Below, piece after piece: positions 7,048 to 55,212 of a stretch of DNA of 64,000 nucleotides. The stretch comes from Candidatus Brennerbacteria bacterium (GTDB taxonomy: Bacteria > Patescibacteriota > Minisyncoccia > UBA6257 > GWB1-50-10). The position numbers and the translations under genes were made by a program. The notes under the pieces are model-generated. The model saw only the letters and a program-made list of their open reading frames with translations. It searched no databases and was not told where the DNA came from. Numbering within the stretch: position 1 is the stretch's first letter; each line of letters starts with the position of its first letter. The stretch spans positions 5,847 through 69,846 of the forward strand of contig JAZDNP010000013.1 of the NCBI GenBank assembly GCA_043799565.1. Reading direction: 5' to 3'.

Positions 7048-10000
7048 TTAAACCCTCCTTATCGCAAGCCACGCGGGCCAGTCGCCTATCTTCGTCTGGA
7101 GCTCCACATTATGCTTATGGACACGCCCGAATTCCACCGATTTTGCATTCACCTCGCGCATGAATTCCTTCTCCCGCGAACGGATAACATGGGTAAGCTC
7201 CGGCGGCACCTCGCAATAAACTGTAATAACGTCTTTGGGTGTAAGTTTCGCATCCTGACGCATTCCTTGCACCGTACGAGTGAGTTCGCGGAACCAGCCC
7301 TCTTCCAAAAGTTCATGCGTTATCTTTGTATCAAGCGTGGCGCTTTCTTTCACTTTCGGGTCCACTTTCACTGTTTTCACGTTTACCTCATCCGCAAGTA
7401 TGGAGAGTAGCTCTTTCTTTCCTTTCAACGCCGCTGATTTTACAACCATGAATGCGAGCGGCTGGCGCACTTTGATGCTTGCCTCGGCCCGCCTTGCAAG
7501 ACCCACCGACGCAAGTTGTCTTACTTCATCCATCGCCGCAGCCAGCTTTTTATTAATAAGCTTCTTGTCCGCTTTCGGCCACCATTCAAAATGCACGCTC
7601 TCCACCTCCCCTTTCTTATTGGGCACGAGCGATAGGTAAAGGGCTTCCGCAAAGAACGGAGTGAAGGGCGCCATAAGTTTGGTCAATTCCATAAGTGCAT
7701 ATCCGAGCGTGGCAGACGCGGCACGGTAATCTTTATCTCCGCCAGCCGACGGATCCGGCTTCTGAAGGCGCCGGCGCGAGCGCCTGATGTACCACCGCGA
7801 GAGATCGCCCGCGAACACTTCTATCGTACGCGCCGCGTCCCCCACTTCGTATGATTCAAGCGCCTTCGTTGCCGTATCTTTCGTTTCTTCCAAACGCGAA
7901 ATTATCCACTTGTCCAAAACGCCGTTTGCCGTGGGCCGCTTTCCTATTCCCGCATGTTTCTCCGCATACGTATCGTAGAAAAGATAGGAGTTGTAGACCA
8001 TCATCAAGAATTGGCGAAGTGTTTTCCCGATATCCGCTTCGTCAAATTTCTTCGGCTCGCCCGGCGGATTTACGGAGTAAAGGTACCAGCGCACCGCATC
8101 AATGCCGTATTTCTGTATCATCGCCCACGGATCCACCGTGTTCCCTTTTGACTTGCTCATCTTCTGCCCGTTCTTATCCAACACAAGTCCGAGTGAAATG
8201 ACGTTCTTGTACGAGCGCCCCTTGCCCATCAGCACACCTATCGCAAGAAGTGTATAAAACCATCCGCGCGTTTGGTCCACACCTTCACTGATGTAATCCG
8301 CCGGGTATTCTTTCTTTCCCGCCCCCGCAAACGGCATCGCGCCCGAATCGAACCACACGTCCAACACTTCGGGTATACGTTTCATCGTCCCTTTACACTT
8401 CGCGCATGCGAACGTGACGTCATCCACGTACGGGCGGTGGAGATCCGTTCGGCCTTCGGCGTCGCGCGGCAATGTGCCAGTTCGGACGTTATACCTCTCA
8501 CCTGTTTCCGGGTACACGAGTGAAAGTTGAGCTTCATCTGAAACTCCTTCCAGTGTTCCTTTTAATATCCAAAGTGGGTCCCCGTGGCTTACTACGATGA
8601 TGGTTTTCCTTTGATAGCGCTCGTCAATTGACTGGAACGCCTTCCACATCCGCGCGCGGACGTCATTCCACGTTTCCCCGCCGTGCGGATTTTTATCGAA
8701 CATCTCGTGCTCGCCGTTGAAAAGCTTGTAAAAGTCTTCCGTCGGCTTCCCTGCGACTTTTCCCCCGTCCATGTCCCGAAGGTCCGGCTCAACTGCGAGC
8801 GTACCGCCGAGGACTCCCTGTAGTATCTTCCCCGTTTCTTTGGCGCGCGCGAGATTTGAGGTCACAATATAATCCGGCTTCACTTTTTTCATCGCGAGCG
8901 CGGTGCGCCGCACAGCCACTTCACCTTTTTTGATGAGGTGTGAGGTGAACGCCTTGGTGTCTACCGCCGTTCCGCAAAGGCCGAGGACATTGTGGTCCGC
9001 TTCCCCATGCCGCACGAATATGAAAACATTCCGTCCTCCTGCTCGCTCCTGAACCTCTTCCATACTGCCCAAAACCTCCACATGGTCACATTTTTCGCAC
9101 TGCCAGATAGGCAAAGGCGTTCCCCAGTAGCGGGAACGTGAAATGGCCCAATCCTTAACTTCGCGGAGCCATTCACCGAAGCGACCATCGCGAAGATTTG
9201 CGGGAACCCATTTAATCTTCTTGTTCTCCGAAAGCAATTTTGCACGAAGCTTGGACATCGCGATGAACCATGAGTCACGCGCGTAGTAGAGGAGCGGCGT
9301 TTTACACCTCCAGCAGAAGGGGTACTCGTGCGAGTATTTCTCGGTCTTGAAAAGCAGGCCTTTCTTTTCCAAGTGTCCAAATATCTTCTTCTCGGTCTCA
9401 GACGATTTCACGTAGAGTCCCCAAAACCCTTTCACGTCCACGGTAAATTTCCCCGCCTCGTCCACCGTGTGGCGCGCAGGGAGCCCCACTTTCATGCCTA
9501 GTTGATAATCGTCCTCTCCGTACATCACCGCAGTGTGTACCACGCCCGTGCCGTCCTCCGTCGTCACAAAGTTCGCGGGGTACACCCTGTACGAGGTCTT
9601 TGACTTGAGCGAAGGAACATCAAAAAGCGGCTCATATTCTACACCGATCAAATCTTTCCCTTTCATTTCTCCCACAATCTCGTGCGGCTCGGGAATGACC
9701 GCGATACGTTCTTTTGCGAGAATATAAATCTCCTTCCCCCCCTTCACTTTTACGTACGTCGTTTTCTGGTTGATCGCGAGCGCGACATTGCCCGGCAACG
9801 TCCATGGTGTTGTGGTCCACGAGAGAATAAATGCTTTCAATTTTGGCGCGTAGAATTTCACATAAACCGACGTGTCTTCCACCGTCTCGTATCCAAGCGC
9901 AACTTCATGTGATGCGAGCGTAGTACCGCACCGCGTGCACCAATGCACCACCTTGTGGCCGCGGTAGAGAAGTTTTTTCTTCCATACCTCCTTCAATATC

Positions 10001-10479
10001 CCCCACACCGCCTCCATATAGCGGTTCTCATACGTGATGTACGGGTGGTCCATATCCAGCCAGAACCCCATCCGTTCGGTAAGCTTTTCCCACTCATCTT
10101 TGTATTTCCACACCGACTGCTTGCACTGCGCGTTAAAGGCCGCAATGCCGAACTTTTCAATCTCTTTTTTGGACTTCAGTCCCAGCGCCTTCTCCACTTC
10201 TATTTCCACCGGAAGCCCGTGGGTGTCCCACCCTCCGCGCCGCGGCACGTGGAAACCCTGCATCGTTTTGTACCGGAGCATGATGTCCTTGAACGAGCGC
10301 GCGAGTACATGGTGGAGACCCGGGCGGCCATTCGCGGTAGGAGGGCCTTCGTAGAACACGAACGGTTTTCTCTTCGCGGTCCGCGCCAAACTTTTCTTGA
10401 AAACATCGTTCGCCCGCCAGTACGCAAGTACCTTTTCTTCCACCGCGGGGAGCGAAAATTCCTTGAGATTGCGGAGCAT
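7048..10479 (-). CDS. ileS: isoleucyl-tRNA synthetase (type 2 / eukaryote-like) carrying an inserted histidine-phosphatase (PGAM-like) domain
   Basis: Shows PTANG...LHH, a CP1 editing domain, KMSKS, a WQCEKC...CAKC zinc knuckle and the DVWFDSG block. About 190 aa inserted between the two CxxC pairs carry RHGEADHN and VVSHGD histidine-phosphatase motifs. Confidence 0.9.
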   Translation of the reverse strand: MLRNLKEFSLPAVEEKVLAYWRANDVFKKSLARTAKRKPFVFYEGPPTANGRPGLHHVLARSFKDIMLRYKTMQGFHVPRRGGWDTHGLPVEIEVEKALGLKSKKEIEKFGIAAFNAQCKQSVWKYKDEWEKLTERMGFWLDMDHPYITYENRYMEAVWGILKEVWKKKLLYRGHKVVHWCTRCGTTLASHEVALGYETVEDTSVYVKFYAPKLKAFILSWTTTPWTLPGNVALAINQKTTYVKVKGGKEIYILAKERIAVIPEPHEIVGEMKGKDLIGVEYEPLFDVPSLKSKTSYRVYPANFVTTEDGTGVVHTAVMYGEDDYQLGMKVGLPARHTVDEAGKFTVDVKGFWGLYVKSSETEKKIFGHLEKKGLLFKTEKYSHEYPFCWRCKTPLLYYARDSWFIAMSKLRAKLLSENKKIKWVPANLRDGRFGEWLREVKDWAISRSRYWGTPLPIWQCEKCDHVEVLGSMEEVQERAGGRNVFIFVRHGEADHNVLGLCGTAVDTKAFTSHLIKKGEVAVRRTALAMKKVKPDYIVTSNLARAKETGKILQGVLGGTLAVEPDLRDMDGGKVAGKPTEDFYKLFNGEHEMFDKNPHGGETWNDVRARMWKAFQSIDERYQRKTIIVVSHGDPLWILKGTLEGVSDEAQLSLVYPETGERYNVRTGTLPRDAEGRTDLHRPYVDDVTFACAKCKGTMKRIPEVLDVWFDSGAMPFAGAGKKEYPADYISEGVDQTRGWFYTLLAIGVLMGKGRSYKNVISLGLVLDKNGQKMSKSKGNTVDPWAMIQKYGIDAVRWYLYSVNPPGEPKKFDEADIGKTLRQFLMMVYNSYLFYDTYAEKHAGIGKRPTANGVLDKWIISRLEETKDTATKALESYEVGDAARTIEVFAGDLSRWYIRRSRRRLQKPDPSAGGDKDYRAASATLGYALMELTKLMAPFTPFFAEALYLSLVPNKKGEVESVHFEWWPKADKKLINKKLAAAMDEVRQLASVGLARRAEASIKVRQPLAFMVVKSAALKGKKELLSILADEVNVKTVKVDPKVKESATLDTKITHELLEEGWFRELTRTVQGMRQDAKLTPKDVITVYCEVPPELTHVIRSREKEFMREVNAKSVEFGRVHKHNVELQTKIGDWPAWLAIRRV

Positions 10480-17694: not shown

Positions 17695-18327
17695 CTATCG
17701 ATGGTGTGCTCCCCGCTCGGGAATGGCATTTTCCGCGGACTCCTTCCTAAACACATAATTCCGAAGCGGGAGAAGAAGAAGTGACGCAAATATGCCGAAA
17801 CATCCCGCGCCGATAAAGATCGCGCGGAATCCGAACGCGTCCACCACGAACCCTCCCACCGCCGCGGCAAACGCATAGGCCATGCCTACCGCAAAAACGC
17901 TCTGCAAACTCCACTCAAACCCTATGCGCCACTTGTCCACGTGGCGGGTAAAGATGGCATACCACCCCGGTACTGCAAATGCCATCGTGAGTCCGAGAAA
18001 TCCCTGGAGTACGTAGATGTGCCACGCTTCGGTCGCAAAAAGATATCCGAACGGAACGAACGCAGAGAAAAAGTATCCGAAGAAAAGCGCCCAAAAATCG
18101 TCCCGCTCTCCGTCGGTTTTATCAAGAAATCGCGCGATGGGAAGTTGCACCAACGACTTCACCACCCAGTAGGTGGTGGTCGCGAGCCCTGCAACCGCCG
18201 CCGAACCCCCCTCAATGCTTCCCATGATGAAGATGGCGAATACCGGACCGAACGAGCCGAATGCGCTGTTGTAGAAGAAATCCACAGCCACAAGTGTTTT
18301 CACTACCCGATTGATGTTGGTGAACAT
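17695..18327 (-). CDS. 6-TM membrane protein resembling half of an MFS transporter
   Basis: 210 aa, about six hydrophobic helices with Gly/Ala-rich helices typical of MFS. Confidence 0.4.
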   Translation of the reverse strand: MFTNINRVVKTLVAVDFFYNSAFGSFGPVFAIFIMGSIEGGSAAVAGLATTTYWVVKSLVQLPIARFLDKTDGERDDFWALFFGYFFSAFVPFGYLFATEAWHIYVLQGFLGLTMAFAVPGWYAIFTRHVDKWRIGFEWSLQSVFAVGMAYAFAAAVGGFVVDAFGFRAIFIGAGCFGIFASLLLLPLRNYVFRKESAENAIPERGAHHR

Positions 18328-18330
18328 AAT

Positions 18331-20832
18331 TTAAGAATGATTTTGGAAAACGAATGCCTCGCCTTCATACACGAGTGAGATCTTCATACCTCGCACCAGC
18401 TCACGCCTCAGTATCTTCTCCGCAAGCACTCCTTTCACGTGCTCCGAAATCGCCTGTCGCAAGGGACGCGCGCCGAACACGGGGCTCCATCCGCGCCGTG
18501 CAACTTCCGCTACCGCGCTTTCATGAATGGTAAGGTTGATGCCGTGGGCCTCCCGCAACGTATCCGAAACCTCCTGGATAAGAATCGCGGCAATCTTCTC
18601 TACCTCGCTTTGCATAAGATTCCGAAAAACAATGATATCAGAAAAACGATTGATAAGCTCCGGCTTGAAATAGGTGGTAAGCCGCTTTTTCAGCTCCAGC
18701 GCAATATCCTCGCTTTTATTCCCTTTTTCTATTTCTTCTTTGATGAAATCCGAGTGGGCGTTGGACGTCGCGATGATGATGGTATTCGTAAAATCCGCGG
18801 TGCGCCCCAAGCTGTCGGTGAGCCGCCCGTCGTCAAACACCTGGAGGAAGAGATTCAAAATGTCCGGGTGTGCCTTTTCAAACTCGTCCAAAAGGATGAG
18901 CGAATAGGGAAGCGCGCGCACCGCATCGGTCAACGCACCCGTCCGTGAACCGTCCGGATTCCCGATAAAACGCTGGATGGAGTCCTTCGTCTGAAACTCC
19001 GACATATCAAAGCGGTGCATCGCGGATGCGGTGTTAAATTGAACTTTGGTAAGTATCTTCGCAAGCTCCGTTTTCCCGACACCCGTCGGTCCCACGAAAA
19101 GGAATGTGGCAATGGGTCCTCCTTTTCGCGTAAGACCGCTCCGATATTCCCGAAGCGCGCGGGATACCGCTTTCACCGCCGCTTCCTGGTTCACAAGGCG
19201 CTCATGAATGATGGATTCAAGATTCAAAAGCTTCTCGGCCTCTTTCTCGCTCGCCGCTTCTATCGGCACCTTGCTTTGCCTCTCCGCTACCGCGATGATA
19301 TGCGACTCGCCAAGTTCGCGCGCATCCTCCGCTGAAGCTTTCGCGAGCGCCTGCTTCAAAAGGTCCAAAGCGCTTCCGGGAAGTATCCGCGTTGCGAAAT
19401 AGCGGTGTGCGAGTTCAACCGCTTTTCTCACCGCACGGAACGTTACCGTTATGTTGAATTCGCGCTCCAAAAGAAGTGAGGTGTAGGTGAGAAAACGCGT
19501 TGCCTCCGCCGGAGTGATTTCGTCCACTTCCACCTTTTCAAACTGCTCCATAAAGTCGGAGCGGGATTCTATAATCTGCTTGAACTCCTTCGGGAACGTT
19601 TCCGCGATAACGGGGATGCTCTCGCTCCCGAGGATGGGAAGGAGCATGTTGATGGGGTCGATGCCTCTTTTTTCCTTGGTGTAAAAAAGTTCGTGCACGT
19701 TCGGTATGGAAAGCACGACATTCCCCGCCGCGAGCACTTCTTCCACGATTTTCTTCATACGTCCCGCCGCTTCCTCCGGCGCTACGTCCCCCACCAGTGC
19801 CCCCACGTGGAGCTCCACGAGGCGCCTATCAAAAAGCGCGGGCGGTACACGGTCTTTGATGATGCGGAACGCGAGGTGTGCGACCATGGTGGACTTTCCG
19901 ACGCCCGGTTCACCCACGAGAAGCGCATTCGGCTTCCCTGGTCTCGCGAGCACTTGGAGTAAATGCTCAAATTCTTTCTCGTGGCCTATAAGGAATCCGA
20001 CCTCCTCGGCCCGCGCAAGGTTGGTAAGGTCAATGCTGTACTGGTCAAGAGTCGGCGTAGGACGAGCGGTCCATGCCCGATTCATGGCACGTTTGCGGAG
20101 CGTGCGTGAGTGATGCGCAAAACCTCCGAGAACCGCGGGGATGCGCCGAAGTCCGGAAAATGTTCTCCGAAATCGGCCAAACACGACCGCTTCAATCGCA
20201 TCTTCCGAACTTATCTCGTGGAGCCCAAAAAGGTTCGGGAGGGGCGCTTTGGGATGTGCGGCAAGCGCGGCAAAAAAGCTCCTCGGCTCCACGAACCGTT
20301 CCTCCGTTCCAAGAGCAACGTAGTACGCACGCACCGCAAGCGTTTCGGCTTCCTTCAAAAGTTCCTCCTTGGACTCATTCCCCTTCCCTTCTTCCGACGA
20401 GAGAAGCGTACCTACTTCCTTCGCAAACACGTCCGGGCGCACGCCAAGCCGGCGAAGCGACTCCTTGATATCCGAGCGATGGGAAAGGTTTGAAAGAAAC
20501 ACGAGCGAGAAATTCTTTCCCGCGCCGAGGGCGTACCGGAACGAACGTTGGAACACGCGGTATGCGGCGGGCGTGAGCGCCTGACGCACATTTACCGAAC
20601 CTTCTTTGAATTCCGCGAGTGTCCGCTCCCCCTCGCGCAAATGGAACACACGGTCAATAAGAAAAAGCGCAATAAATACTCCGAGTGCACGGGCTGAAAC
20701 GGCATCGGTGGTGAGAAGCACCACGGCCGCCCCGATGAGTGCCGCGTACGATACCGCGGTAAACAGACGCACTAGGAATTCTCCTCCCGTACTGAATCCA
20801 AAACGTGCGTCGCGAAAGAAAATGTTCGTCAT
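18331..20832 (-). CDS. Clp-family double-AAA+ ATPase (ClpA/ClpC-like) with an N-terminal membrane anchor
   Basis: D1 Walker A LVGEPGVGKST; D2 Walker A FVGPTGVGKTE, Walker B ILLDEFEKAHPD, sensor GARPLRQAI. Two TM helices replace the Clp N-domain. The D1 Walker B region reads VVLSIPNVHE, with no hhhhDE. Start taken at MTNIFF (20832), whose ATG overlaps the upstream gene's stop (ATGA). Confidence 0.8.
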   Translation of the reverse strand: MTNIFFRDARFGFSTGGEFLVRLFTAVSYAALIGAAVVLLTTDAVSARALGVFIALFLIDRVFHLREGERTLAEFKEGSVNVRQALTPAAYRVFQRSFRYALGAGKNFSLVFLSNLSHRSDIKESLRRLGVRPDVFAKEVGTLLSSEEGKGNESKEELLKEAETLAVRAYYVALGTEERFVEPRSFFAALAAHPKAPLPNLFGLHEISSEDAIEAVVFGRFRRTFSGLRRIPAVLGGFAHHSRTLRKRAMNRAWTARPTPTLDQYSIDLTNLARAEEVGFLIGHEKEFEHLLQVLARPGKPNALLVGEPGVGKSTMVAHLAFRIIKDRVPPALFDRRLVELHVGALVGDVAPEEAAGRMKKIVEEVLAAGNVVLSIPNVHELFYTKEKRGIDPINMLLPILGSESIPVIAETFPKEFKQIIESRSDFMEQFEKVEVDEITPAEATRFLTYTSLLLEREFNITVTFRAVRKAVELAHRYFATRILPGSALDLLKQALAKASAEDARELGESHIIAVAERQSKVPIEAASEKEAEKLLNLESIIHERLVNQEAAVKAVSRALREYRSGLTRKGGPIATFLFVGPTGVGKTELAKILTKVQFNTASAMHRFDMSEFQTKDSIQRFIGNPDGSRTGALTDAVRALPYSLILLDEFEKAHPDILNLFLQVFDDGRLTDSLGRTADFTNTIIIATSNAHSDFIKEEIEKGNKSEDIALELKKRLTTYFKPELINRFSDIIVFRNLMQSEVEKIAAILIQEVSDTLREAHGINLTIHESAVAEVARRGWSPVFGARPLRQAISEHVKGVLAEKILRRELVRGMKISLVYEGEAFVFQNHS

Positions 20833-21182
20833 TGGCTTTGGGGTACAAATGCGAGCACGAGAAGGAGCGGAGGGATGAGAAGCCATACTATGTACGCACC
20901 AAGCGCCACCACCAAGAAAACCGCGTAAATCGCGCTCGCGACGAGAAAACGGAGGCTCCGGAACATAAACCCGAGTACGTACCCGACGATAGAATAGTCG
21001 CCGTAGAGCGGATGGAAAAGATGCCGCGCGGTGATACGCCACGCGAAAAAGTAGTCCAACCGCTCAAGACGGTTCAGCACAAAATTGAAGTAGATCTTTG
21101 CGCTCTTTACGTACCAATGACGGAGAAATTCCGCTATTCGGTATACCGCTCGGCGGAACACATATATAAGTGCCGCACTCAT
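20829..21182 (-). CDS. small membrane protein translationally coupled to the Clp-like ATPase
   Basis: 117 aa with two C-terminal TM helices; the stop/start overlap is caATGAcg. Confidence 0.4.
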   Translation of the reverse strand: MSAALIYVFRRAVYRIAEFLRHWYVKSAKIYFNFVLNRLERLDYFFAWRITARHLFHPLYGDYSIVGYVLGFMFRSLRFLVASAIYAVFLVVALGAYIVWLLIPPLLLVLAFVPQSQ

Positions 21183-29047: not shown

Positions 29048-29153
29048 GACACATCTCCTTTAATTGTTCTGTTTGTATTATATCACCAAATAGCGAAAAA
29101 GTCAAATGTTCCTCGTTTCTGCCCCGTTAAAACGCTACAATATAGAGGAACTC

Positions 29154-30833
29154 ATGCTCCAAACAAAGGCACTTGAAGAAAAACTCGCCAAGCAGCGGAA
29201 GGTGGCCGAAGAAGCGGACGCCAAACGCCGGGCAGAAGCCCTGAAACTTCCCTATTTGGACCTCATATCGGTGAAGGTACCGACCGAGATAAAGGCGATG
29301 CAGTTGGTGCCCGAGGCGGAGGCGAAGGAGGCACTTCTTGTCCCTATCCAGCTTGCACGGAAAAAGCTTATTGTCGCCGCGTTCAATCCGGAAAAGCCGG
29401 AGGCAAAAGCCATACTTGAGCGTCTCAAAAAGACGTACACCGTAGAAACGGTGGTGTCCTCGCTTTCGTCCCTCACGCACGGATGGAGTTACTACAAGTA
29501 TGTCGCCGCAGAAGAAAAGGAGATAAGCGGGAGGGTACAGATCGACCACGCGCGGCTTGGCGATCTCATGGGCCAGATGAAAAACCTTGAGGACGTGAAG
29601 CGCGCCATCGCGGAATTCAAAAGCCCTCTCACTTCTGAAATGCTAGAAATCGTCATCGCGGGCGCTATGGCACTCCGCGCTTCCGACATCAACCTGGAAC
29701 CGCGCGAAGGCGGAGGCACGCTCCGCTACCGCATTGACGGCCTCCTCTATATTGCCTACGACGGATTTGCGGCACATGTGTACCACTCGCTCGTCACGCG
29801 CGTAAAACTTCTCTCCAACCTGAAACTGAACGTCGCAGACGAACCGCAGGACGGTCGCTTCACCATAGACCTTGAAGACCGCGACATTGAGGTGCGTACC
29901 TCGCTCATCCCCTCCGAATACGGGGAGACATCCGTGATGCGGATACTGGACCCGAACGCACTTAAGGTAAACCTGGAAGACCTCGGCTGGCGGGCGGACG
30001 ACCTCGCAATTGTGCAGGGAGAAATAAAAAAACCGAACGGTTTGGTGTTGAATACCGGTCCTACCGGGAGCGGAAAAACCACCACACTCTACGCGTTCCT
30101 CAAACACGTGTGGAAACCTGAAATAAAGGTGATTACGGTAGAAGACCCCATCGAATACCACCTCCAAGGAATATCACAAACCCAGGTGGACCCCGAAGCG
30201 AACTACACCTTCGCGTCTGGCCTTCGCGCGATACTGCGACAGGACCCGAATATCATCCTCGTCGGCGAGATACGCGACAAAGAGACCGCGGAGATAGCTT
30301 TGAATGCTTCGCTTACGGGCCACATCGTGTTTTCCACGCTCCACACGAACGACGCGGTAGGCGCGGTCCCCCGCCTTTTGGATCTTGGCATCCAACCACA
30401 AATATTGGGCCCTTCACTTACCCTCATCATCGCGCAACGACTCGTTCGCATACTTTGCAAGCACTGCCGCGTGCCCTCACCGCTTGGCAAAGAGGACGCG
30501 GAACGAATTAAAAAACTTCTCGCGGAACTTCCCGCACGCGTGGACCGCACCCCATACGCAAAACCTACGGTCTTCCAACCGAAAGGATGCGCTGAATGTA
30601 AGAATCTCGGTTACCACGGGCGAACGTCCATATTCGAACTTTTCGCCATCACGAAAGAAATAGAGGAAATGATATATAAAAATCCGACCGAAATAGACCT
30701 CGCGCGCTTGGCACGCGAGGGGGGAATGACTACAATGCAGGAAGACGGCACACTCAAAGTTCTCCAAGGTATCACCTCTTTTGACGAGGTGGAGCGTGTC
30801 ACCGGACCACTTTTGTGGCGCGGCGCAAAATAA
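29154..30833 (+). CDS. pilB: GspE/PilB-family type II/IV secretion ATPase
   Basis: Walker A GPTGSGKTTT, Asp/His boxes, C-terminal CxxC...CxxC. Start taken at MLQTKALEE, preceded by an AGAGGA SD. Confidence 0.8.
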   Translation: MLQTKALEEKLAKQRKVAEEADAKRRAEALKLPYLDLISVKVPTEIKAMQLVPEAEAKEALLVPIQLARKKLIVAAFNPEKPEAKAILERLKKTYTVETVVSSLSSLTHGWSYYKYVAAEEKEISGRVQIDHARLGDLMGQMKNLEDVKRAIAEFKSPLTSEMLEIVIAGAMALRASDINLEPREGGGTLRYRIDGLLYIAYDGFAAHVYHSLVTRVKLLSNLKLNVADEPQDGRFTIDLEDRDIEVRTSLIPSEYGETSVMRILDPNALKVNLEDLGWRADDLAIVQGEIKKPNGLVLNTGPTGSGKTTTLYAFLKHVWKPEIKVITVEDPIEYHLQGISQTQVDPEANYTFASGLRAILRQDPNIILVGEIRDKETAEIALNASLTGHIVFSTLHTNDAVGAVPRLLDLGIQPQILGPSLTLIIAQRLVRILCKHCRVPSPLGKEDAERIKKLLAELPARVDRTPYAKPTVFQPKGCAECKNLGYHGRTSIFELFAITKEIEEMIYKNPTEIDLARLAREGGMTTMQEDGTLKVLQGITSFDEVERVTGPLLWRGAK

Positions 30834-40779: not shown

Positions 40780-42167
40780 TTACTTGTACACACGTTCCTT
40801 AATAAGCATTATCTTTTGATTCAACGCGGGGTTCTGATTAATCTCACGATTTATTTTCTCATATGCATGAATTGCTGTCGTGTGGTCCCTTTTCCCCAGC
40901 TTCTCCCCAATGTGAGGGTAAGAAAGTTTTAATACATCACGGAGAAGAAACATGGCAATTTGGCGTGGTTCCACCACTTCTTGTTTACGGCACCGATTGA
41001 TAAGGTCGGAAACCGGAACCTCGAAGAATTCCGCAACGGTCCTTATCACATCTGTAGCGCTCACGTTTTTTGACGTTACTTGCGTAGTTTCATTTATAAT
41101 TTCATCCAATTTTTTTGGATCCAAAATTCCTCCTCTGTGCTGATGGAGGAAAAGAACTTTATTCAGCACCCCTTCAAGCTCGCGAATGTTTTTTGAACTT
41201 TCGCCGCAATGTGGGTGAGAATTTTATCATCCAACTGAACGCCTAATTCCTGAACTTTTGCCCGTAGAATAGCGAGGCGCATCTCGTAATCCGGGTAGGT
41301 AACGTCCGCAATCATACCGCCCTCAAAGCGCGACCTGAGCCGTTCTTCAAGTGTGGGAATTGCCGCAGGGGGCCTATCGGAGGATATGATTATTTGCTTC
41401 GAGTGTTCGTAAAGGGCGTTAAATGTATAGAAAAACTCAAGTTCTGTGGTGGTTTTTCCTCCAATAAACTGGATGTCATCGATAATAAGCACGTCCACGT
41501 CCCGGTATTTTTTCTTCATATCCTCCATCCGTTTGTTGCGGACTGACCAGACTACGTCGTTGATAAATTTTTCGGAAGAAACATATAACACGCGGTTTCT
41601 TCCACCTGTGTGTTTTGCGATGGCGTTGCCGGCCGCTTGGAGGAGATGGGTTTTCCCGAGCCCCACCCCGCCGTAGAGGAACAGCGGGTTATATTTTTTC
41701 CCTACCGCACCAATGATTGCTTGAACCGCGGCATACGCGAGCTCGTTGGAAGAGCCGACAATAAAATTTTCAAACGTATAGCGCGGATTAAGGTTTGTGA
41801 CCGGATCCACTTTCAATTCAGTAATGGGAAGTTGTGACCGCTCCTCGGTCAAAGGAGTTGCGGAAGGGATTTTAGTGGTTGCCACGCGCGCGGGGACTTC
41901 GCGTGCGCCCGTCAAAACCACATAATCAACATTTCGGATGGAGCTGTCTAAATTGCGGAGCGATCCCAAAATTAGTTTGTGGTAACGATTCCTTACCCAC
42001 TCCTTGGCGAAGTTGTTGGGGAGGCCCACCAGCGCCACTCCCTCGCGCTCATTTCGTTCTACCAACTCGCTATTCTTTAACCAGGTGATAAAGTTCGGTT
42101 TGGAGATTTGGAGCTCTATCTCCCCCAAAGTCGCCTTCCAGAGTTCTTTCGGGTTCATGGTACCCAC
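40780..42167 (-). pseudogene. dnaA: chromosomal replication initiator DnaA, frameshifted at an A6 homopolymer (T-run at plus 41189-41194)
   Basis: Domains I-III sit in ORF 41163-42167 (Walker A GGVGLGKTHLL) and domain IV in ORF 40780-41169 (DHTTAIHA). Adding one A restores ...KVQKNIRELEGVLNKVL.... Confidence 0.8.
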
Positions 42168-43846: not shown

Positions 43847-44980
43847 CTAATCAAGTTCAAGCCGGTAGAGGAGGTCGGTGTAGCGGTCTATAAAATAGAC
43901 CGCGTTTTCGTTCGCGCGAACGCGCGAGGCATCAAATGTCGTTTCACCCACACTTCCCCACGGAGATGAGACGTCCTCAATTGAACGGGTTGAGGTTGCG
44001 ATGCTACCGAGCACAAAAACGTCCTCCGACCTAGTTTTTTGCATAAGGTAACTGTTCAATATGGCGTCGGTGTGCTCTGGCGGACCTTCTTTCGGTACGA
44101 AGCAGAAAAGCTTCATGTTATTTACCGCGCATTTGTCGGGGAATGTATAAAAAGGGAAAGCTACGGATCCTCCGAACGAACTATCAAGAAGCGAAGTTCC
44201 CTGTTCGCTTGTGAATTTCAAAAACGAATCGCGCGCTGTGGAAGCAGGGACAATCCACAGGTCCTGTGTGGGAGTGAAAAGCACGTTCAACGCGCGAGAA
44301 GACGGCTCCAGTTTCCATACGCGATTTTCAAAAAGCGAAGAAGGGCGCTCAAGGATAAACGTGTCTCCAGTTTTGGAGGTCACGAATATTACATCTTCCA
44401 TGCGGAAATCGCGTACCACCACCATATAAATAAGAGGTGTTTTTGATATGTCCACGAAGGAGAGGTTTGCGTCGTTCCCGCTCCGCACCGTTGCGATAAG
44501 CTCGTTCGGGTTCCTTCCCCACCCTGCATTTGTTATCTCTCGAGCAAGCGGACGCCATACCGAATCAACGGTATCAAAAATGGCCCATTGGGGAGAGGAA
44601 GGATTTCCGAAGGAAACAAGGAGACGACGTCCATCGGCGGACGGCTCTGTGCGGTTCAGAGCAGTGATGGCTTGGCGGGATATCTCAAGGTCCGGTCCGT
44701 CTTTTACCGCGTAGACGTAACCTTCAGGAGTGATGTAATAAACTTCCCCGGTTTCCGGGACAAGCCAGTAATCAAACGCCGTATGGTCGGATATCACGGT
44801 CGGCGTAGAAAGCGAGGAAGAGTTATTAGTTTCAGTTGATGTGGAAGTTGGAGCGCCGCCATTCCCCGGTGGGACGTTAGCTGGAGGTTCGGCAATAAAA
44901 AGCCACCAGAGGAAATAGATTACTACGCCGACCACTATTGCGATTCCGATTACGGTGAGAATTTTGTAAAGCGGTTTCAT
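43847..44980 (-). CDS. hypothetical membrane-anchored extracytoplasmic protein (last gene of the T4SS-like operon)
   Basis: N-terminal TM followed by a 340-aa extracytoplasmic domain with no recognisable family. Confidence 0.4.
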   Translation of the reverse strand: MKPLYKILTVIGIAIVVGVVIYFLWWLFIAEPPANVPPGNGGAPTSTSTETNNSSSLSTPTVISDHTAFDYWLVPETGEVYYITPEGYVYAVKDGPDLEISRQAITALNRTEPSADGRRLLVSFGNPSSPQWAIFDTVDSVWRPLAREITNAGWGRNPNELIATVRSGNDANLSFVDISKTPLIYMVVVRDFRMEDVIFVTSKTGDTFILERPSSLFENRVWKLEPSSRALNVLFTPTQDLWIVPASTARDSFLKFTSEQGTSLLDSSFGGSVAFPFYTFPDKCAVNNMKLFCFVPKEGPPEHTDAILNSYLMQKTRSEDVFVLGSIATSTRSIEDVSSPWGSVGETTFDASRVRANENAVYFIDRYTDLLYRLELD

Positions 44981-44986
44981 GATGAG

Positions 44987-46051
44987 CTATGGGCAACTCT
45001 TGGCGCTGAGGTGGAGGTGTCCCGCGCCGGCTTCATACCGCGCGCCATTACACTGTTGGTATCCGTTCGTGACTGCGAATCCCGCCGCGTCCGCCGCAGA
45101 GGTGAACTGCGCGAGGTATTGGCAATCCGTGCCAGAAAGGTATCTCCGGTTATCAATAATGACGGTCACATCCACGCTACACCCGTTGTAATGACCCGCC
45201 GACTCAAAAGAAGCTGTGGGCGGGTATGCCTCAATGATTCGCCATTTCATGACAATATCTCTCCCGAACAACCCCGCATCCGCAACCTTGATACCACTTG
45301 CTCCCGATATCGTTGTGTTTAATCGTGCTAGAGCGGAGTTGGTTTTCGGATTCACGATGCAATTTGATGGCTCTCCGCCCCATCGACACTTCCCCGGTTG
45401 CATAGGGAAAACTCCGTTAAGCTCGGCGCAGTTCGTGCAACTGGCGCGAATGATGCACGCGCGTAGTTGCGCGGGAGACGGTGCGGGCACGAGGGTGGTG
45501 CAGTATGCAAACTCACGCGCTCTTGTGGTTGACGCGTTTTGGAGTTCCTCGTCGGTGATTGGGAGTGTTTGATTCTCGCCGGGGATAAGTTGGTCAGCGG
45601 ACACGCCTTCTTTTTCAATGCCGCCGAGCTGGATTCTTTCTGGTCCCGCAATTTCTCCAAATCTTTGGGTAATCCGCGGGTTTACGGTGTTGAGAATGAG
45701 ATAGGAGCCAAAAAGAAGTACGATACCCCACATCGCCGACGTAATCATGTCTTTTCCTTCTTGCTGGCGGGTGGTGCTTCCTCCCGCGAATGTGTAAAAA
45801 AGCGAGCCGACGACGATAATACCTACCGCAAGTACGCCGGCAATGGCGAGTGCTATCTGATATACACGAGCGATATAAGCTGCGGGATTTGCCTCAATCC
45901 CAATATTGTTGTCGGAAACGCAGGAAATCCCTGTCGGGCACTGAATATCGGGCAAATCAAAGGATGCCGCAAGCGCGGGCAAATTTCCCGCAAGAAAGGC
46001 GACCGCAAAAACTATCGCAAAAACTATCGGAAAAAAAGGTTGATATTTCAT
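44987..46051 (-). CDS. VirB2/TrbC-like pilin candidate with a Cys-rich C-terminal domain
   Basis: Signal peptide, two adjacent hydrophobic helices as in T4SS pilins, then a ~200-aa tail carrying about 12 Cys. Confidence 0.4.
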   Translation of the reverse strand: MKYQPFFPIVFAIVFAVAFLAGNLPALAASFDLPDIQCPTGISCVSDNNIGIEANPAAYIARVYQIALAIAGVLAVGIIVVGSLFYTFAGGSTTRQQEGKDMITSAMWGIVLLFGSYLILNTVNPRITQRFGEIAGPERIQLGGIEKEGVSADQLIPGENQTLPITDEELQNASTTRAREFAYCTTLVPAPSPAQLRACIIRASCTNCAELNGVFPMQPGKCRWGGEPSNCIVNPKTNSALARLNTTISGASGIKVADAGLFGRDIVMKWRIIEAYPPTASFESAGHYNGCSVDVTVIIDNRRYLSGTDCQYLAQFTSAADAAGFAVTNGYQQCNGARYEAGAGHLHLSAKSCP

Positions 46052-46743
46052 GGTTCAATAGAAAATTGTGCACGCGTAGCCGCGATTTCTTGAAGGTTTC
46101 TCTGGTTTTGCGCTTCTAGAGAGACTGAGAATGTTCGCGGGGCGAGGTTGGAGCTTCCGGAGACGGTAAGTTCCGTGTCGCTTCCGACGCTTTGACGCAT
46201 TCCATCCACGGTCCATGCGAAAGAAAGGTCCGAAAGCGAGGAAAGGTTGAAAAAGAATGGCACGGCACGGAGCGTCATCGTGCCGCCGCTCCCTCTCCCT
46301 CCACGGTAAGGCGCATCGATAACCAGGATGGGTTGTACAGTCGGGATGCGGAGCGAGGTTTCGATTGTTTCCGCGCCGTGGAAAGCGGAAACGTGTACAA
46401 AGTGCGCATCACCGGGCCCTTTTGTCGCAGTAAATGTCGCCTGTTTCACACCGCGGCCGCCACCAATGAACTTTCCATCAACTTCCCACAATATCTCCGT
46501 CTGCGAAAGGTCCAACAACACCCCGTTCTTTGTCGCTTCCACTGCGACTGAAATGGGAGAGGTAAGCGAAGGGAGCGCTTTTCCTTTGAAAAAGGCCGGA
46601 TAGAAGTTGGAAGCTTTCCATGTAATGAACGCTTGGCTTAATGATGTCTGCGCGGAGACTCCCGCGTACCAGATTGCAATGGAAACGAGAACAGCTAAAG
46701 TGATGATAATGTTTTTTTTCATGCCGCTTTCTTTGCTCCCCAT
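46048..46743 (-). CDS. hypothetical secreted/anchored protein (T4SS-like operon)
   Basis: N-terminal TM; 231 aa; overlaps its neighbours by 4 nt and ~25 nt, consistent with operon packing. Confidence 0.4.
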   Translation of the reverse strand: MGSKESGMKKNIIITLAVLVSIAIWYAGVSAQTSLSQAFITWKASNFYPAFFKGKALPSLTSPISVAVEATKNGVLLDLSQTEILWEVDGKFIGGGRGVKQATFTATKGPGDAHFVHVSAFHGAETIETSLRIPTVQPILVIDAPYRGGRGSGGTMTLRAVPFFFNLSSLSDLSFAWTVDGMRQSVGSDTELTVSGSSNLAPRTFSVSLEAQNQRNLQEIAATRAQFSIEP

Positions 46744-47258
46744 TTTTCCTGAATCCTTTTACTTTGCGCTTCATGTTCTTCCTTCGTTAGCCCTTTTTTC
46801 TCATCGTTTCCCTCAACCTCTTCCCGCGCGGTGCGGTACATGGTACGCGCTTCCTTCGCCGCCGCGAATGTACCTCGTGTTTCCTTCACATCCTTCAGCT
46901 TTTTCACGTCCATTTTACCCAATGTAACTGCGGTAGTCACGAGGCCGAACTTCTCCGGGTGGTTTTCCATGTAGACCGAGGCAAGGAAAGTGAATATTTG
47001 GGTGGGAACGAACGGTATGATTTGCGTTGCAATTGGTACAAGGAATCGGCGAACAAGATTTGCGCTCGCAGTTGCGCCTTTTAGCTGGAACCAGAGCGTA
47101 AAGAGAAGCCAGGAGAGGGATTGGATGACGAACCCCCCCACGCCCGCGAGAAGATCGGCGAAGGCGCTTACAATATCAATGAGGAGCGCAATCATGCTCC
47201 CGAATATAATTTCCACTAGATTGAATTTTGGTCCGTCCATAAAATGATTATTGATCAA
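46719..47258 (-). CDS. small polytopic membrane protein (T4SS-like operon)
   Basis: 179 aa with three or four TM helices and a charged C-terminus. Confidence 0.4.
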   Translation of the reverse strand: MINNHFMDGPKFNLVEIIFGSMIALLIDIVSAFADLLAGVGGFVIQSLSWLLFTLWFQLKGATASANLVRRFLVPIATQIIPFVPTQIFTFLASVYMENHPEKFGLVTTAVTLGKMDVKKLKDVKETRGTFAAAKEARTMYRTAREEVEGNDEKKGLTKEEHEAQSKRIQEKWGAKKAA

Positions 47259-47261
47259 TGA

Positions 47262-49019
47262 TCATTGATTACTTTTCAACCCCTTTATCTCCAACATTTG
47301 CTCGGGGTTCGTGGTAATAATCTGATCCTCGGTGTAGGAGGCGATGATCTTGACCGCGACGTGTTTGAGTCCCGCAAAGAAGAGCCCCTCCCCCACCCCC
47401 GCCTCAAGGAGAAGCATCTTTTCTCCGTCGGTGAGGTCAAATGCGCCCGCTACCGCATCAATTGAGGTTGGCGATTGTTTCATAAGGAGCTGGATGGACG
47501 AGTTGGTGACGATGGGGCGCCCATATTCTGACCGGAGGAAATCCTCCACGTCCTGCGTAATGGTGGTGATGCCGAGGTAGTATTTCCTGGCGCGCTTTAC
47601 GAGGCCGAAGAGGAAAGACGCGGAGTCCTTATATTTCATCATCCACCACGCCTCATCAATGATGAGGAGGCGGCGCTTAAGTTCGGAGCGCACCAGATTC
47701 CACACGAAGTTCAGCACGATGTACATTGCGATAGGGCGAAGTTCCTCTTCTAGGTCGCGGATGGAGAAAACGATAAGGCGGTTTTTTACGTCAATGTTGG
47801 TCGGCGCGTTTGTGAATCCGGCGTAAGATCCCTTCACAAACTTTTCCAAACGTTGGCCAATACCGCGTCCGCCATCCGTGTTCGTCAGCACCGTTTGAAG
47901 ATCTCCCAAAAGCGGAGGATTCAATTCTTTGATACTGCCGAAGTTTTCCGCAGTGATGTCGCGGGATGCGTAGGTTTCGGTGATGGCGCGGTCCAAAAGT
48001 GAGTCCTCTTCGGGCGTTACCGCGCCGAGCATGAGTTTCACGAGGCCGGTAAGGTTTAGAACATGCGATTTGAAAACGTCCGCAGGCTCTTCCCCTTCCG
48101 GAATAAGCGGAATATCAAAAGGATTTATGTGGTTTGGTGAAGTGAGGGAAATCTTAAAATAGCTTCCGCCGACCGCGTTCGCAAGGTTTTGATACTCGTT
48201 CTCCGGGTCTATAACGATCACGTCGGTGCCGAGCATCATGGTGCGGAGGATCTCTAGTTTTGTTGCATACGACTTGCCGGAACCTGATTTTGCAAAAACC
48301 ACCGCGTTCGCATTTTCCAGCGAGAAGCGGTCAAAAATGATGAGCGATTGGTTGTGGAGATTAATGCCGTAGAGAATACCCTTGTCGGAGGTAAGATCGG
48401 GCGAGACGAACGGAAAAAGCGAAGAAACAGGGCCGGAATTCATCGGCGTATTAATGGAAAGCTTGTCCAGTCCGGTAGGGAGCGCCGAAAGGAAGGCCTC
48501 ATCCTGCCGGAAGAGCGCCGGTTTCACGTTCACAAGCCGTGATTCAAGAGTAGATTGTATTTTGTCCTCCAGTTTTGTAAGCTCCTCCACGGATTTCCCG
48601 TAGAGCGTGATGTAAACGCCAACCTTAAAGAGTTTTTCCTGCGCTTGTTGGAGCGTGTCGCGGAGGCTTTCTAGGTCACGGTATGCCGTTTCAAGCATGG
48701 GGTCCCGCACGAGCCCCTTCTCTTCCCGCTCCATTGTTTCCGCCTGCACTTGCGCCACTTTTTTGCGTAGGTTCTTAAGCGCCGTACCGGTGTCGGTTGG
48801 ATGGATGAAGATGGCGATATCAAGCATCTCCGGCATGTTGATTAGTGGAGAGAACCAGCCGCTCGCGACGTAACGTGGATAGGTGAAGAGAAAAAGAGTT
48901 TTTGTATAGTAGTCGCCCAACTTCAGATAATTGGACGACACTTCAGCGCCGGCAGGAGCAATAACACTTCCCATATCCTCGGAAGACGGTTCGTACGCTT
49001 TCGGTGTTTTTATCTCCAT
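47262..49019 (-). CDS. virB4: VirB4/TrbE-family T4SS ATPase, C-terminal NTPase part
   Basis: Walker A AKSGSGKS, Walker B/DEAW block LLIIDEAWWMM, and C-terminal TQDVEDF. Confidence 0.8.
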   Translation of the reverse strand: MEIKTPKAYEPSSEDMGSVIAPAGAEVSSNYLKLGDYYTKTLFLFTYPRYVASGWFSPLINMPEMLDIAIFIHPTDTGTALKNLRKKVAQVQAETMEREEKGLVRDPMLETAYRDLESLRDTLQQAQEKLFKVGVYITLYGKSVEELTKLEDKIQSTLESRLVNVKPALFRQDEAFLSALPTGLDKLSINTPMNSGPVSSLFPFVSPDLTSDKGILYGINLHNQSLIIFDRFSLENANAVVFAKSGSGKSYATKLEILRTMMLGTDVIVIDPENEYQNLANAVGGSYFKISLTSPNHINPFDIPLIPEGEEPADVFKSHVLNLTGLVKLMLGAVTPEEDSLLDRAITETYASRDITAENFGSIKELNPPLLGDLQTVLTNTDGGRGIGQRLEKFVKGSYAGFTNAPTNIDVKNRLIVFSIRDLEEELRPIAMYIVLNFVWNLVRSELKRRLLIIDEAWWMMKYKDSASFLFGLVKRARKYYLGITTITQDVEDFLRSEYGRPIVTNSSIQLLMKQSPTSIDAVAGAFDLTDGEKMLLLEAGVGEGLFFAGLKHVAVKIIASYTEDQIITTNPEQMLEIKGLKSNQ

Positions 49020-49023
49020 ATTG

Positions 49024-49671
49024 TTATTCTTTACTTACCACCCGCTTTCCCTCCACGAGTTCGGGATTATACAGGTTATAAAAGAGTTCCACCAAAGCAT
49101 CATTTTCCAACGGTGCCGCGCGAAGTCCTATTTGAGAAAGTCCATCTATCACCTGGTTTACGCGCCGTTCAAGTTGAGAAAGAGTTTCCTGCGAGCTTTC
49201 TTCGTGCAACGTTGAGCCAGGAGCAGCTTTCCTGAAGAGGGACAAAAGCCCTCCTGCCTTACCGGCGGGAATTATGGATTCGTACGGCACTACGGTAAAA
49301 AAAGTTTTTGAGATAATGGCATTTTCCTCCACAAACGTGCGGATGAATTCCACGTACTCGCCTATCTGTATCTTTAAAAGTTCGCTTGGTTCCTTCTCCA
49401 TATGTGTGCGCATGGAAGCAAGGTACGCGTCCACATTCACTTTGCGCGAGTGGATAAAGAACTGGACCGAAAAATCCAAGGTGTTGAGAAAACTTTGGAA
49501 ACTTCCGAGAATAAGTCCCTGTTCCGCCTCGGATTTCAGGTCAAAGTTTACACCGCTCACAATGAGTACACGGCGCACCCCCCCACTTTTTAAATACAGT
49601 ACGCCATCTCGTATCTCCTTTATATCAACGAGCGCTTGGGTCGGCGTGGTGGGTTCCTTCTGCATAGACAC
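49024..49671 (-). CDS. VirB4 N-terminal domain encoded as a separate ORF (split VirB4)
   Basis: The pattern LVDIKEIRDGVLYLKSGGVRRVLIVSGVNFDLKSEAEQ...FLNTLDFSVQFFIHSRK is typical of the VirB4/TrbE N-terminus. A stop and 11 nt separate it from the ATPase ORF, which is in a different frame. Confidence 0.55.
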   Translation of the reverse strand: MSMQKEPTTPTQALVDIKEIRDGVLYLKSGGVRRVLIVSGVNFDLKSEAEQGLILGSFQSFLNTLDFSVQFFIHSRKVNVDAYLASMRTHMEKEPSELLKIQIGEYVEFIRTFVEENAIISKTFFTVVPYESIIPAGKAGGLLSLFRKAAPGSTLHEESSQETLSQLERRVNQVIDGLSQIGLRAAPLENDALVELFYNLYNPELVEGKRVVSKE

Positions 49672-49683
49672 AGTTTATAGGCG

Positions 49684-50187: not shown

Positions 50188-50193
50188 AACGCA

Positions 50194-51138: not shown

Positions 51139-51143
51139 TTCTT

Positions 51144-53114: not shown

Positions 53115-53118
53115 GCGG

Positions 53119-55209: not shown

Positions 55210-55212
55210 GAA

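Follow-up and report, generated by a model that had tools for sequence, protein, structure and literature searches.

We analysed a 64,000-nucleotide (nt) window from a Candidatus Brennerbacteria bacterium, the whole stretch of DNA within which gene content was judged, and describe here a minus-strand gene pair that encodes a Clp/Hsp100-like ATPase with two AAA+ modules (D1 and D2) and a small partner protein. The open reading frame (ORF) of the ATPase runs from an ATG at position 20832 to a TAA at 18333-18331 and specifies 833 amino acids (aa). An initial annotation, made from the sequence alone, had delimited this ORF correctly, but its length of 834 aa is reached only when the stop codon is counted among the codons. 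The ATG of the ATPase lies on the TGA of the 117-aa ORF of the partner (21182-20829) within the sequence ccaATGAcg, which confirms the ATGA overlap described before. A longer start, a GTG at 21042 that would give a protein of 903 aa, was tried and rejected; it would overlap the small gene out of frame, and the start shared by homologues matches M71 of this 903-aa ORF, in other words the ATG at 20832. The NCBI record of the identical ATPase carries the name 'ATP-dependent Clp protease ATP-binding subunit [Candidatus Brennerbacteria bacterium]', and the small ORF is recorded as 'hypothetical protein'. The features of the pair are listed below with the evidence on which each is based, where AF2 stands for AlphaFold2; the motifs GEPGVGKST, GPTGVGKTE, LLDEFEKAH and GARPLRQ are present as previously reported, and their coordinates were verified by re-translation.

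20829..21182, minus strand: small partner protein, 117 aa (ORF listing)
18331..20832 (stop included), minus strand: Clp/Hsp100-like double AAA+ ATPase, 833 aa (translation, Pfam, NCBIfam, phmmer, Foldseek)
20638..20832, minus strand: conserved N-terminal motif (residues 1-22) and hydrophobic helical hairpin, putative membrane anchor (hydropathy, AF2)
20155..20580, minus strand: divergent Clp_N with two four-helix repeats, residues 85-226 (profile search, AF2)
20047..20154, minus strand: Clp_N-D1 linker containing LGGFA and MNRAWTARPTP, residues 227-262 (AF2, conservation)
19318..20046, minus strand: D1 AAA+ module, residues 263-505, degenerate, very probably a pseudo-ATPase (ClpB/ClpC alignment, family conservation)
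19888-19914, minus strand: D1 Walker A GEPGVGKST, intact (alignment, verified)
19759-19797, minus strand: D1 pore loop LVGDVAPEEAAGR, without Tyr (alignment)
19690-19719, minus strand: D1 Walker B site VVLSIPNVHE, with P-N for D-E (alignment)
19531-19557, minus strand: D1 arginine-finger site DFMEQFEKV, with E-Q for R-R (alignment)
18622..19197, minus strand: D2 AAA+ large domain, residues 546-737, predicted intact motor (PF07724, alignment)
19066-19092, minus strand: D2 Walker A GPTGVGKTE (alignment, verified)
18928-18963, minus strand: D2 pore loop shortened to GNPDGSRTGALT, without GYVG (alignment)
18868-18894, minus strand: D2 Walker B LLDEFEKAH (alignment, verified)
18334..18621, minus strand: D2-small (ClpB_D2-small) with sensor-2 GARPLR (PF10431, E 6e-18)

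The domain order of the ATPase is hydrophobic hairpin, Clp_N, conserved linker, D1, D2 and D2-small. Pfam searches returned AAA_2 (PF07724, E 7e-50), AAA_lid_9 (PF17871, E 4e-9) and ClpB_D2-small (PF10431, E 6e-18), and the two tandem AAA+ modules with AAA_lid_9 after D1 and ClpB_D2-small after D2 place the protein in class I (two-ring) of the Clp/Hsp100 proteins. The NCBIfam models of ClpB, ClpA, ClpK, ClpV and ClpG were all matched far under their equivalog cut-offs, with scores of 462.7 versus 1232.1 (TIGR03346) and 405.1 versus 1417 (PRK10865) for ClpB, and of 418.9 versus 993.15 (TIGR02639) and 330 versus 1350 (PRK11034) for ClpA. Among PDB sequences, phmmer retrieved ClpB (1qvr, 1.2e-113), ClpC (6em8, 1.2e-112) and ClpA (1ksf, 1.3e-89). 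The AF2 model has a mean predicted local distance difference test (pLDDT) score of 78.5, and its best Foldseek matches were ClpC (top) and ClpB with E-values down to 1e-55. Sequence (Pfam, NCBIfam, phmmer) and fold (Foldseek) are thus both in agreement with the initial description of a double-AAA+ Clp-like ATPase.

For comparisons at residue level we used phmmer alignments to ClpB of T. thermophilus and ClpC of S. aureus. A long ClpB-type M-domain is lacking, as had been noticed before: D1 and D2 abut, residues 422-518 of ClpB are left unmatched, the M-domain of ClpC is also without a counterpart, and the anchor motifs are 63 residues apart compared with 119 in a ClpC-type control. The alignment further showed that an IGF-type loop for docking to ClpP is absent, with a gap opposite 'RFAGFGG' of ClpC and no [ILV]-G-[FL] tripeptide in residues 686-724, the canonical position in D2.

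Conservation was assessed in 119 full-length homologues (53-100% identity, all from Patescibacteria-type sources) and in a genome scan that yielded 80 loci, namely 73 of the degenerate type described here and seven canonical controls (L066, L071, L073, L075, L077, L079 and L080). The previously proposed substitution of the D1 Walker B motif was evident against both ClpB and ClpC, where 'VLSIPNVHE' stands opposite 'ILFIDELHT' with P377 and N378 replacing D and E, and the alignment offers no D-E pair elsewhere in D1. A sequencing error can be excluded, given that 108 of the 119 homologues have P at position 377 and 90 have N at position 378. Two further changes had not been described before. The arginine-finger pair 'ERRFQ' reads 'MEQFE' here, which means that both fingers are gone, and nearly all of the 119 homologues have (E/D)-Q at this site. 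The D1 pore loop 'AKYRGEFEERLK' is 'DVAPEEAAGRMK' here and has no tyrosine (the segment KYRGEFE is aligned with DVAPEEA), and it is without an aromatic residue among the 119 homologues. The hhhhDE motif and the trans-acting arginine fingers of a catalytically competent Clp/Hsp100 D1 are therefore both missing, and these states are conserved in the family. Because it has neither the acidic pair nor the arginine fingers, D1 is very probably unable to hydrolyse ATP, a conclusion which the initial annotation had drawn from the Walker B site. Across the wider family, the Walker B site of D1 is IPN or IPD within the Paceibacteria-type clade, with IDN, IEN or IKN in other members, and the Walker A lysine of D1 is R or I in some lineages. 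Mean column conservation in the close family is 0.75 for D1 versus 0.85 for D2, and since D1 is conserved nearly as well as D2 it appears to be a constrained pseudo-ATPase that is functional and not decaying.

In D2, both Walker motifs, sensor 1 (N691), the arginine finger (R729) and sensor 2 (GARPLR) are all intact, and because these catalytic residues are invariant across the 119 homologues and the 73 loci, D2 bears the signature of an active ATPase. Its pore loop is altered in a way that had likewise escaped the initial annotation: GAPPGYVGYEEGG is aligned with GNPDG--SRTG, and 'GAPPGYVGYEEGGQLT' with 'GNPDG----SRTGALT', by which the tyrosine of GYVG is removed. The deletion comprises 7 residues in the family alignment and 4 positions in the pairwise phmmer alignment, and the loop consensus among the 119 homologues is G-[TN]-P-D-G-[ES]-[RK]-T-G. 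The aromatic pore loops of Clp/Hsp100 proteins (D1 KYR, D2 GYVG) are accordingly absent from the 119 homologues and from nearly all of the 73 loci.

The N-terminus of the ATPase contains hydrophobic segments at approximately residues 23-41 and 47-63 according to hydropathy, which correspond to AF2 helices 15-41 and 47-65, and the hairpin ends in a conserved LFLxDRxxH. F57 and H64 are invariant in homologues, and F19, R22, Y29, L58, D60 and R61 are nearly so. Homologues show protein-level conservation of residues 1-69, which are hence translated, and the two helices do not fall upstream of the true start. Nearly all family loci have one to two hydrophobic segments ahead of Clp_N, and none of the canonical controls does. 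The helices had been thought to replace the canonical Clp N-domain, which proved not to be the case, as a divergent Clp_N is retained after the hairpin. A profile of residues 70-262 built from 51 family members matched ClpC N-domains with E-values of 9.7e-15 to 1e-12 across both repeats (profile positions 22-150 versus ClpC residues 6-137), the ClpA N-domain at about 1e-9 and ClpB at about 1e-6 to 1e-12. Pfam Clp_N (PF02861) was matched directly by 18 of the 51 members; the window ATPase sequence alone gave no Pfam Clp_N match. In the AF2 model this region forms eight helices with pLDDT values of 81-91, falling to 74-78 across residues 141-160.

The linker between Clp_N and D1 is predicted to be disordered (pLDDT <50 in residues 232-255) and yet is the second most conserved segment (0.78, with D2 at 0.85). 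Sequence resembling MNRAWTA occurs throughout the family, LGGFA in the Paceibacteria-type clade only, and the linker could be a docking motif for some partner. LGGFA was also considered as a displaced ClpP-docking motif, which was not adopted, the motif being on the wrong face of the ring and confined to that one clade. A TPTLD motif ahead of D1 is common to the ATPase and ClpC. Approximately 21 loci encode two CxxC motifs ahead of the transmembrane (TM) segments. When 10 such N-termini were searched against Pfam, DnaJ_CXXCXGXG was the best match in 7, and PF00684 was matched in 9 of the 10 with E-values of 1e-5 to 0.06, under the gathering threshold. The conserved (F/Y)YWG motif that follows the zinc finger is the counterpart of the YFKEPRL-type motif at the N-terminus of the window protein. 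The zinc-finger N-termini were observed in non-Paceibacteria loci (L028, L030-L033, L035-L037, L042-L044, L046, L049, L051, L053, L054, L059, L063, L067 and L076).

The AF2 model of the small partner protein (pLDDT 90.6) consists of a long amphipathic helix (residues 2-46), a loop (54-64) and a second helix of 48 residues (65-112). The only strongly hydrophobic stretch is found at residues 79-112, with P104-P105 and a hydropathy segment at 85-103. The protein had been described as a 117-aa two-TM protein, of which the length was confirmed, but there is one clear hydrophobic segment within the single helix 65-112 in place of two. Invariant residues are R21-H22-W23-Y24, D43, P58-L59-Y60, D62, G71, R75, Y86, Y97 and W100, including an RHWY motif in the N-terminal helix and residues of a PLYxDYS motif in the loop. 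No family was found for the protein in Pfam, NCBIfam or PADLOC, and a Foldseek search of its model, a generic helical hairpin, against the PDB returned nothing better than E 3.5. A profile search of 1.84 billion representatives retrieved 356 relatives at E<=1e-3, and the best 150 of the 356 are nearly all stand-alone proteins of about 105-125 aa. Besides stand-alone proteins of ~115 aa, the search retrieved truncated fusion fragments only. One 1540-aa match to the profile (P0256) was discarded as a low-complexity eukaryotic repeat.

With a hidden Markov model of the small protein we then searched every ORF in the 80 loci. The small protein is encoded immediately 5' of the ATPase, in the same orientation, in 53 of the 73 family loci, mostly with gaps of -23 to +19 nt (gaps of >100 nt occur in four loci), and in 6 others (L038, L045, L050, L055, L061 and L064) it is part of the ATPase ORF as an in-frame fusion, so that the two are adjacent or fused in 59 of 73. 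Among the 14 family loci without a match, 8 are cut by a contig end just upstream. None of the canonical Clp genes in the 80 loci has the small protein upstream; the match in L075 lies between the canonical Clp and the degenerate copy. Because of the independent fusions in several assemblies and the near-universal adjacency, there is strong evidence at the level of gene organisation that the ATPase and the small protein constitute one functional unit, and the co-occurrence analysis thus speaks for the functional link that the initial annotation had suggested.

The canonical controls of the scan show what the family has lost. Their D1 Walker B motif is FIDE(L/I)H(T/Q), or VFLDELHT in L066, their arginine fingers are an R-R pair (ERRFQ, or ARRFQ in three), their D1 pore loop has an aromatic residue or His before RGEFEER (RGDFEER in L066), and their D2 loop reads GYVGY, GYVGH or GYIGH. 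In the family, the absence of the D1 arginine fingers and of the D1 pore tyrosine as well as the short non-aromatic D2 loop are essentially universal, with L052 and L033 as the exceptions. When the D1-D2 core was used for a neighbour-joining tree, all 76 family sequences grouped in a single clade to the exclusion of all 8 canonical sequences, and the sister group is made up of canonical Patescibacterial Clp genes (L056, L071 and L075). In each of these three loci the canonical Clp gene is found upstream of the degenerate paralogue, at a distance of 21 nt in L056 and of about 2.4 kb in L071, and with only the small-protein ORF between them in L075:

L056:2351-7740, canonical Clp and degenerate neighbour
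L071:3205-10554, canonical Clp and degenerate neighbour
L075:2669-8164, canonical Clp and degenerate neighbour

Since the two are neighbours in three loci, the family appears to be a distinct paralogue that is able to coexist with a normal Clp and is not the sole Hsp100 of the lineage. The canonical copies in L056, L071 and L075 carry all catalytic and pore motifs, yet seemingly have no M-domain and no ClpP loop. The sequences point to a monophyletic paralogue family, which was seen only in Patescibacteria-type genomes, and a full-text literature search found no description of it.

The ATPase resembles several known systems in part. With ClpC (B. subtilis / S. aureus; 3j3s, 6em8, 9rai) it shares the order Clp_N, D1, D2 and D2-small as well as the closest N-domain profile, but it has an N-terminal hairpin and a small membrane partner and is without the coiled-coil M-domain, the ClpP-docking loop, the D-E of the D1 Walker B, the D1 arginine fingers and a Tyr in either pore loop. 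Of all sequence matches, ClpB (T. thermophilus 1qvr; E. coli) scores best overall, with 272 bits for D2 alone, and neither ClpB nor the ATPase has a ClpP loop; in contrast to ClpB, the ATPase has no M-domain and so no DnaK coupling, and it shows a membrane anchor, a degenerate D1 and a deleted GYVG. ClpA (E. coli 1ksf) can be aligned continuously over residues 261-824 and has D1 and D2 joined directly without an M-domain, but differs in its IGL ClpP loop, active D1 motifs, tyrosine pore loops and solubility. Torsins are Clp/Hsp100 relatives without aromatic pore loops that associate with the membrane by an N-terminal hydrophobic region and depend on transmembrane cofactors, LAP1 and LULL1 (PMC5425593). 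These proteins of the eukaryotic endoplasmic reticulum and nuclear envelope, as non-threading Hsp100 derivatives under a membrane partner, offer the nearest functional analogy, which does not imply membership. They have a single AAA+ module, are luminal and receive their arginine finger from the cofactor, whereas the ATPase has two rings, a Clp_N and its own invariant D2 finger R729, and its partner is without an AAA-like fold; nothing points to a shared ancestry closer than that of the Clp/Hsp100 superfamily. In FtsH and Msp1 an N-terminal transmembrane anchor sets the AAA+ ring under the membrane. Both have one classic-clade AAA module with aromatic pore loops, FtsH also a protease domain, and neither was retrieved as a homologue of the ATPase.

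Taken together, we propose with a probability of roughly 0.55 that the ATPase is a membrane-tethered, non-threading, ring-forming remodelling ATPase of Hsp100 type, which acts in an obligate complex with the small protein and is specific to Patescibacteria. It is probably not the annotated "Clp protease subunit" but a new kind of membrane-bound, ATP-driven remodelling machine. D1 would serve as a non-hydrolysing ring for assembly or regulation, probably still binding nucleotide, and D2 would be the only motor, which is expected to work in an oligomeric ring (hexamer), since the D2 arginine finger operates in trans. Tethered by the N-terminal hairpins and the partner helix, the ring might sit beneath the cytoplasmic membrane with its Clp_N domains toward the membrane, and the small protein might be a stoichiometric subunit with the function of an assembly factor, adaptor or regulator. 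Such a machine would be independent of ClpP and of DnaK coupling: the absent docking loop makes feeding of ClpP unlikely, the absent M-domain would rule out a DnaK-coupled disaggregase of ClpB type, and processive threading is unlikely because neither ring has aromatic pore loops. ATP cycles of D2 may instead remodel or pull on membrane-proximal clients or on the membrane partner itself. Membrane-proximal proteins are the probable clients in view of the Clp_N domain and the DnaJ-type zinc fingers in relatives, and our best guess is a role in protein quality control, related lineages carrying a DnaJ-type CXXCXGXG zinc finger at the N-terminus in the same architecture. The initial annotation had suggested a "membrane-tethered unfoldase/disaggregase pair". 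The pair (53 adjacent, 6 fused) and the tether (the hairpin) stand, and the unfoldase or disaggregase activity is doubtful with no aromatic pore loops, no M-domain and no ClpP loop.

The gene that follows the ATPase bears on one of the alternative explanations and encodes a membrane protein of the major facilitator superfamily (MFS):

17695..18327, minus strand: half-size MFS membrane protein, 210 aa (PF07690, MFS_1, E 2e-16, profile positions 6-175 of 347)

It begins 3 nt past the ATPase stop (junction TAA-ATT-ATG), and an MFS homologue is found on the same strand 3' of the ATPase in 15 of 65 family loci. The half-size MFS protein is a possible operon or module partner of the ATPase. On the other side, a uracil-DNA glycosylase (UDG) gene ends 8 nt upstream of the small ORF. 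The neighbours of the pair (UDG, MFS, NUDIX, IF3 and L20) are not type VI secretion genes, and the score of 387.5 versus a cut-off of 884.95 for TIGR03345 gives no support for a ClpV/TssH protein either. Synteny beyond the pair is lineage-restricted, with UDG in 12 loci, the half-size MFS in 15, NUDIX, L20 and IF3 in 20 each, and PolX in 18. Three seemingly conserved neighbour clusters were rejected as antisense ORFs within the ATPase gene. A defence system was considered as well and discarded: PADLOC gave only partial, generic AAA-domain matches for the ATPase (DolB, PDC-M37B) and none for the small protein, and the conserved synteny is of a housekeeping kind.

Several other explanations have to be weighed against the proposed non-threading remodelling ATPase. 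Both NCBI and JGI name the protein a Clp protease ATP-binding subunit, ClpA or ClpC, according to which it would be a ClpC/ClpA-type unfoldase that feeds ClpP and is simply tethered to the membrane. The best sequence and fold matches indeed include ClpC and ClpA, and the N-domain profile is closest to ClpC, but the [ILV]-G-[FL] loop at D2 and both pore tyrosines are absent and the equivalog scores are far too low (ClpA 418.9 versus 993; PRK11034 330 versus 1350), which renders this explanation very improbable. Even less credible is a catalytically silent, Clp-derived scaffold or decoy, comparable to other degenerate Hsp100 relatives. The degenerate D1 and the replacement of its Walker A lysine by R or I in some lineages would fit a silent protein; the invariance of Walker A, Walker B, sensor 1, arginine finger and sensor 2 of D2 in 119 homologues and 73 loci would not.

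The main rival is a threading extractor or disaggregase for membrane proteins, in the manner of Msp1 or of an FtsH without protease, which would grip its substrates by non-aromatic loops, the N-domains or the linker. The extractor is favoured by the membrane anchor, by the substrate-binding Clp_N that has been kept and by the intact D2 motor; the DnaJ-type zinc fingers of relatives suggest unfolded-protein clients, and a few deep-branching relatives keep an aromatic residue in the D2 loop. To our knowledge, however, the known protein-translocating AAA+ motors use aromatic or hydrophobic pore-loop residues. The D2 loop of the family is 7 residues shorter, polar (P-D-G-x-R/K-T/S-G) and variable between lineages, and for Clp/Hsp100 proteins aromatic pore loops are described as important for threading (PMC5425593). 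We regard the extractor as unlikely. Alternatively, the ATPase might be the cytoplasmic motor of a membrane conduit, in which six hairpins and six partner helices form a ring and D2 gates or drives cargo, possibly together with the half-size MFS protein. The obligate and sometimes fused membrane partner and the MFS gene 3 nt downstream, kept in 15 loci, would be in line with this, and a precedent for an Hsp100 at a membrane pore, HSP101 of PTEX (PDB 6e10), is among the sequence matches. The MFS neighbour is nevertheless found in a minority of loci, no pore-forming domain is recognisable, and the small protein is a plain helical hairpin without structural match; we consider the conduit speculative and rather improbable. 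A broader reading, to which we likewise give little credence, sees in the pair an unrecognised class of AAA+ membrane machines, near-universal in Patescibacteria, whose Hsp100-derived D2 ring would have given up threading and would pass ATP-driven movements on through six hairpins and six partner helices, by which a membrane process is gated, assembled or driven. Candidate processes could be the translocation or extraction of a non-canonical cargo, or the control of a surface structure required for the episymbiotic lifestyle, and the class, if true, would be a bacterial counterpart of the still unexplained Torsin logic.

Some observations weigh against the non-threading, membrane-tethered ATPase that we favour. 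Its non-threading character is deduced solely from the absence of aromatic pore loops, and another gripping chemistry is possible; an aromatic D2 loop residue is moreover kept in a few deep-branching members (PPGY in L052, PGF in L033). The inactivity of D1 is not uniform in the family, because in fused Microgenomates-type members the Walker B site of D1 still holds D-E, E-E, D-D or N-E. Hydropathy is the only basis on which membrane insertion is predicted, and with ~15-17 residues the second helix is short. The ATGA overlap taken alone is weak evidence of a link, tight spacing being common in compact genomes, and the neighbour-joining tree carries no support values. Independence from ClpP has to be read with the scope of the search in mind: no ClpP was found among the scanned ORFs of the 64-kb window, which does not cover the genome, and ClpP and DnaK content were judged there only.

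Hsp100/Clp proteins are the textbook case of pore-loop tyrosines that draw polypeptides through a ring, and the paralogue, with an intact D2 ATPase under strong selection, no gripping loops in either ring, a membrane anchor and a dedicated small membrane subunit, would let one see in nature what remains possible for an Hsp100 ring that does not thread. Annotating the family as 'Clp protease ATP-binding subunit' throughout Patescibacteria leads to an overestimate of the proteolytic capacity of these bacteria. The pair is likely to be important for their cell biology because its conservation spans a very large radiation of poorly understood, mostly uncultured organisms whose genomes are tiny.

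Elsewhere in the window, positions 7048-10479 (minus strand) encode a 1143-aa class I aminoacyl-tRNA synthetase that is IleRS-like (tRNA-synt_1 and Anticodon_1) and has a His_Phos_1 domain (histidine phosphatase superfamily, E 3.6e-31) inserted at residues 487-650. The dnaA gene at 40780-42167 (minus strand) is seemingly split into two overlapping ORFs, one of 334 aa with the N-terminal and ATPase domains (41163-42167) and one of 129 aa with the C-terminal DNA-binding domain (40780-41169), which reflects either a frameshift or an assembly error near 41165. The split is situated in the dnaA-dnaN origin region, where the GC content dips to 0.47. A run of large ORFs without Pfam match (377, 354, 231, 215, 314, 692, 696 and 256 aa) extends from 43847 to 55983 on the minus strand and surrounds a TraG/VirB4-like P-loop ATPase (47262-49019); it may represent an uncharacterised secretion or conjugation-like surface apparatus. 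Finally, a PilB-like type II/IV secretion ATPase (T2SSE and MshEN) is encoded at 29106-30833 on the plus strand and suggests the presence of a type IV pilus system, as is common in Patescibacteria.

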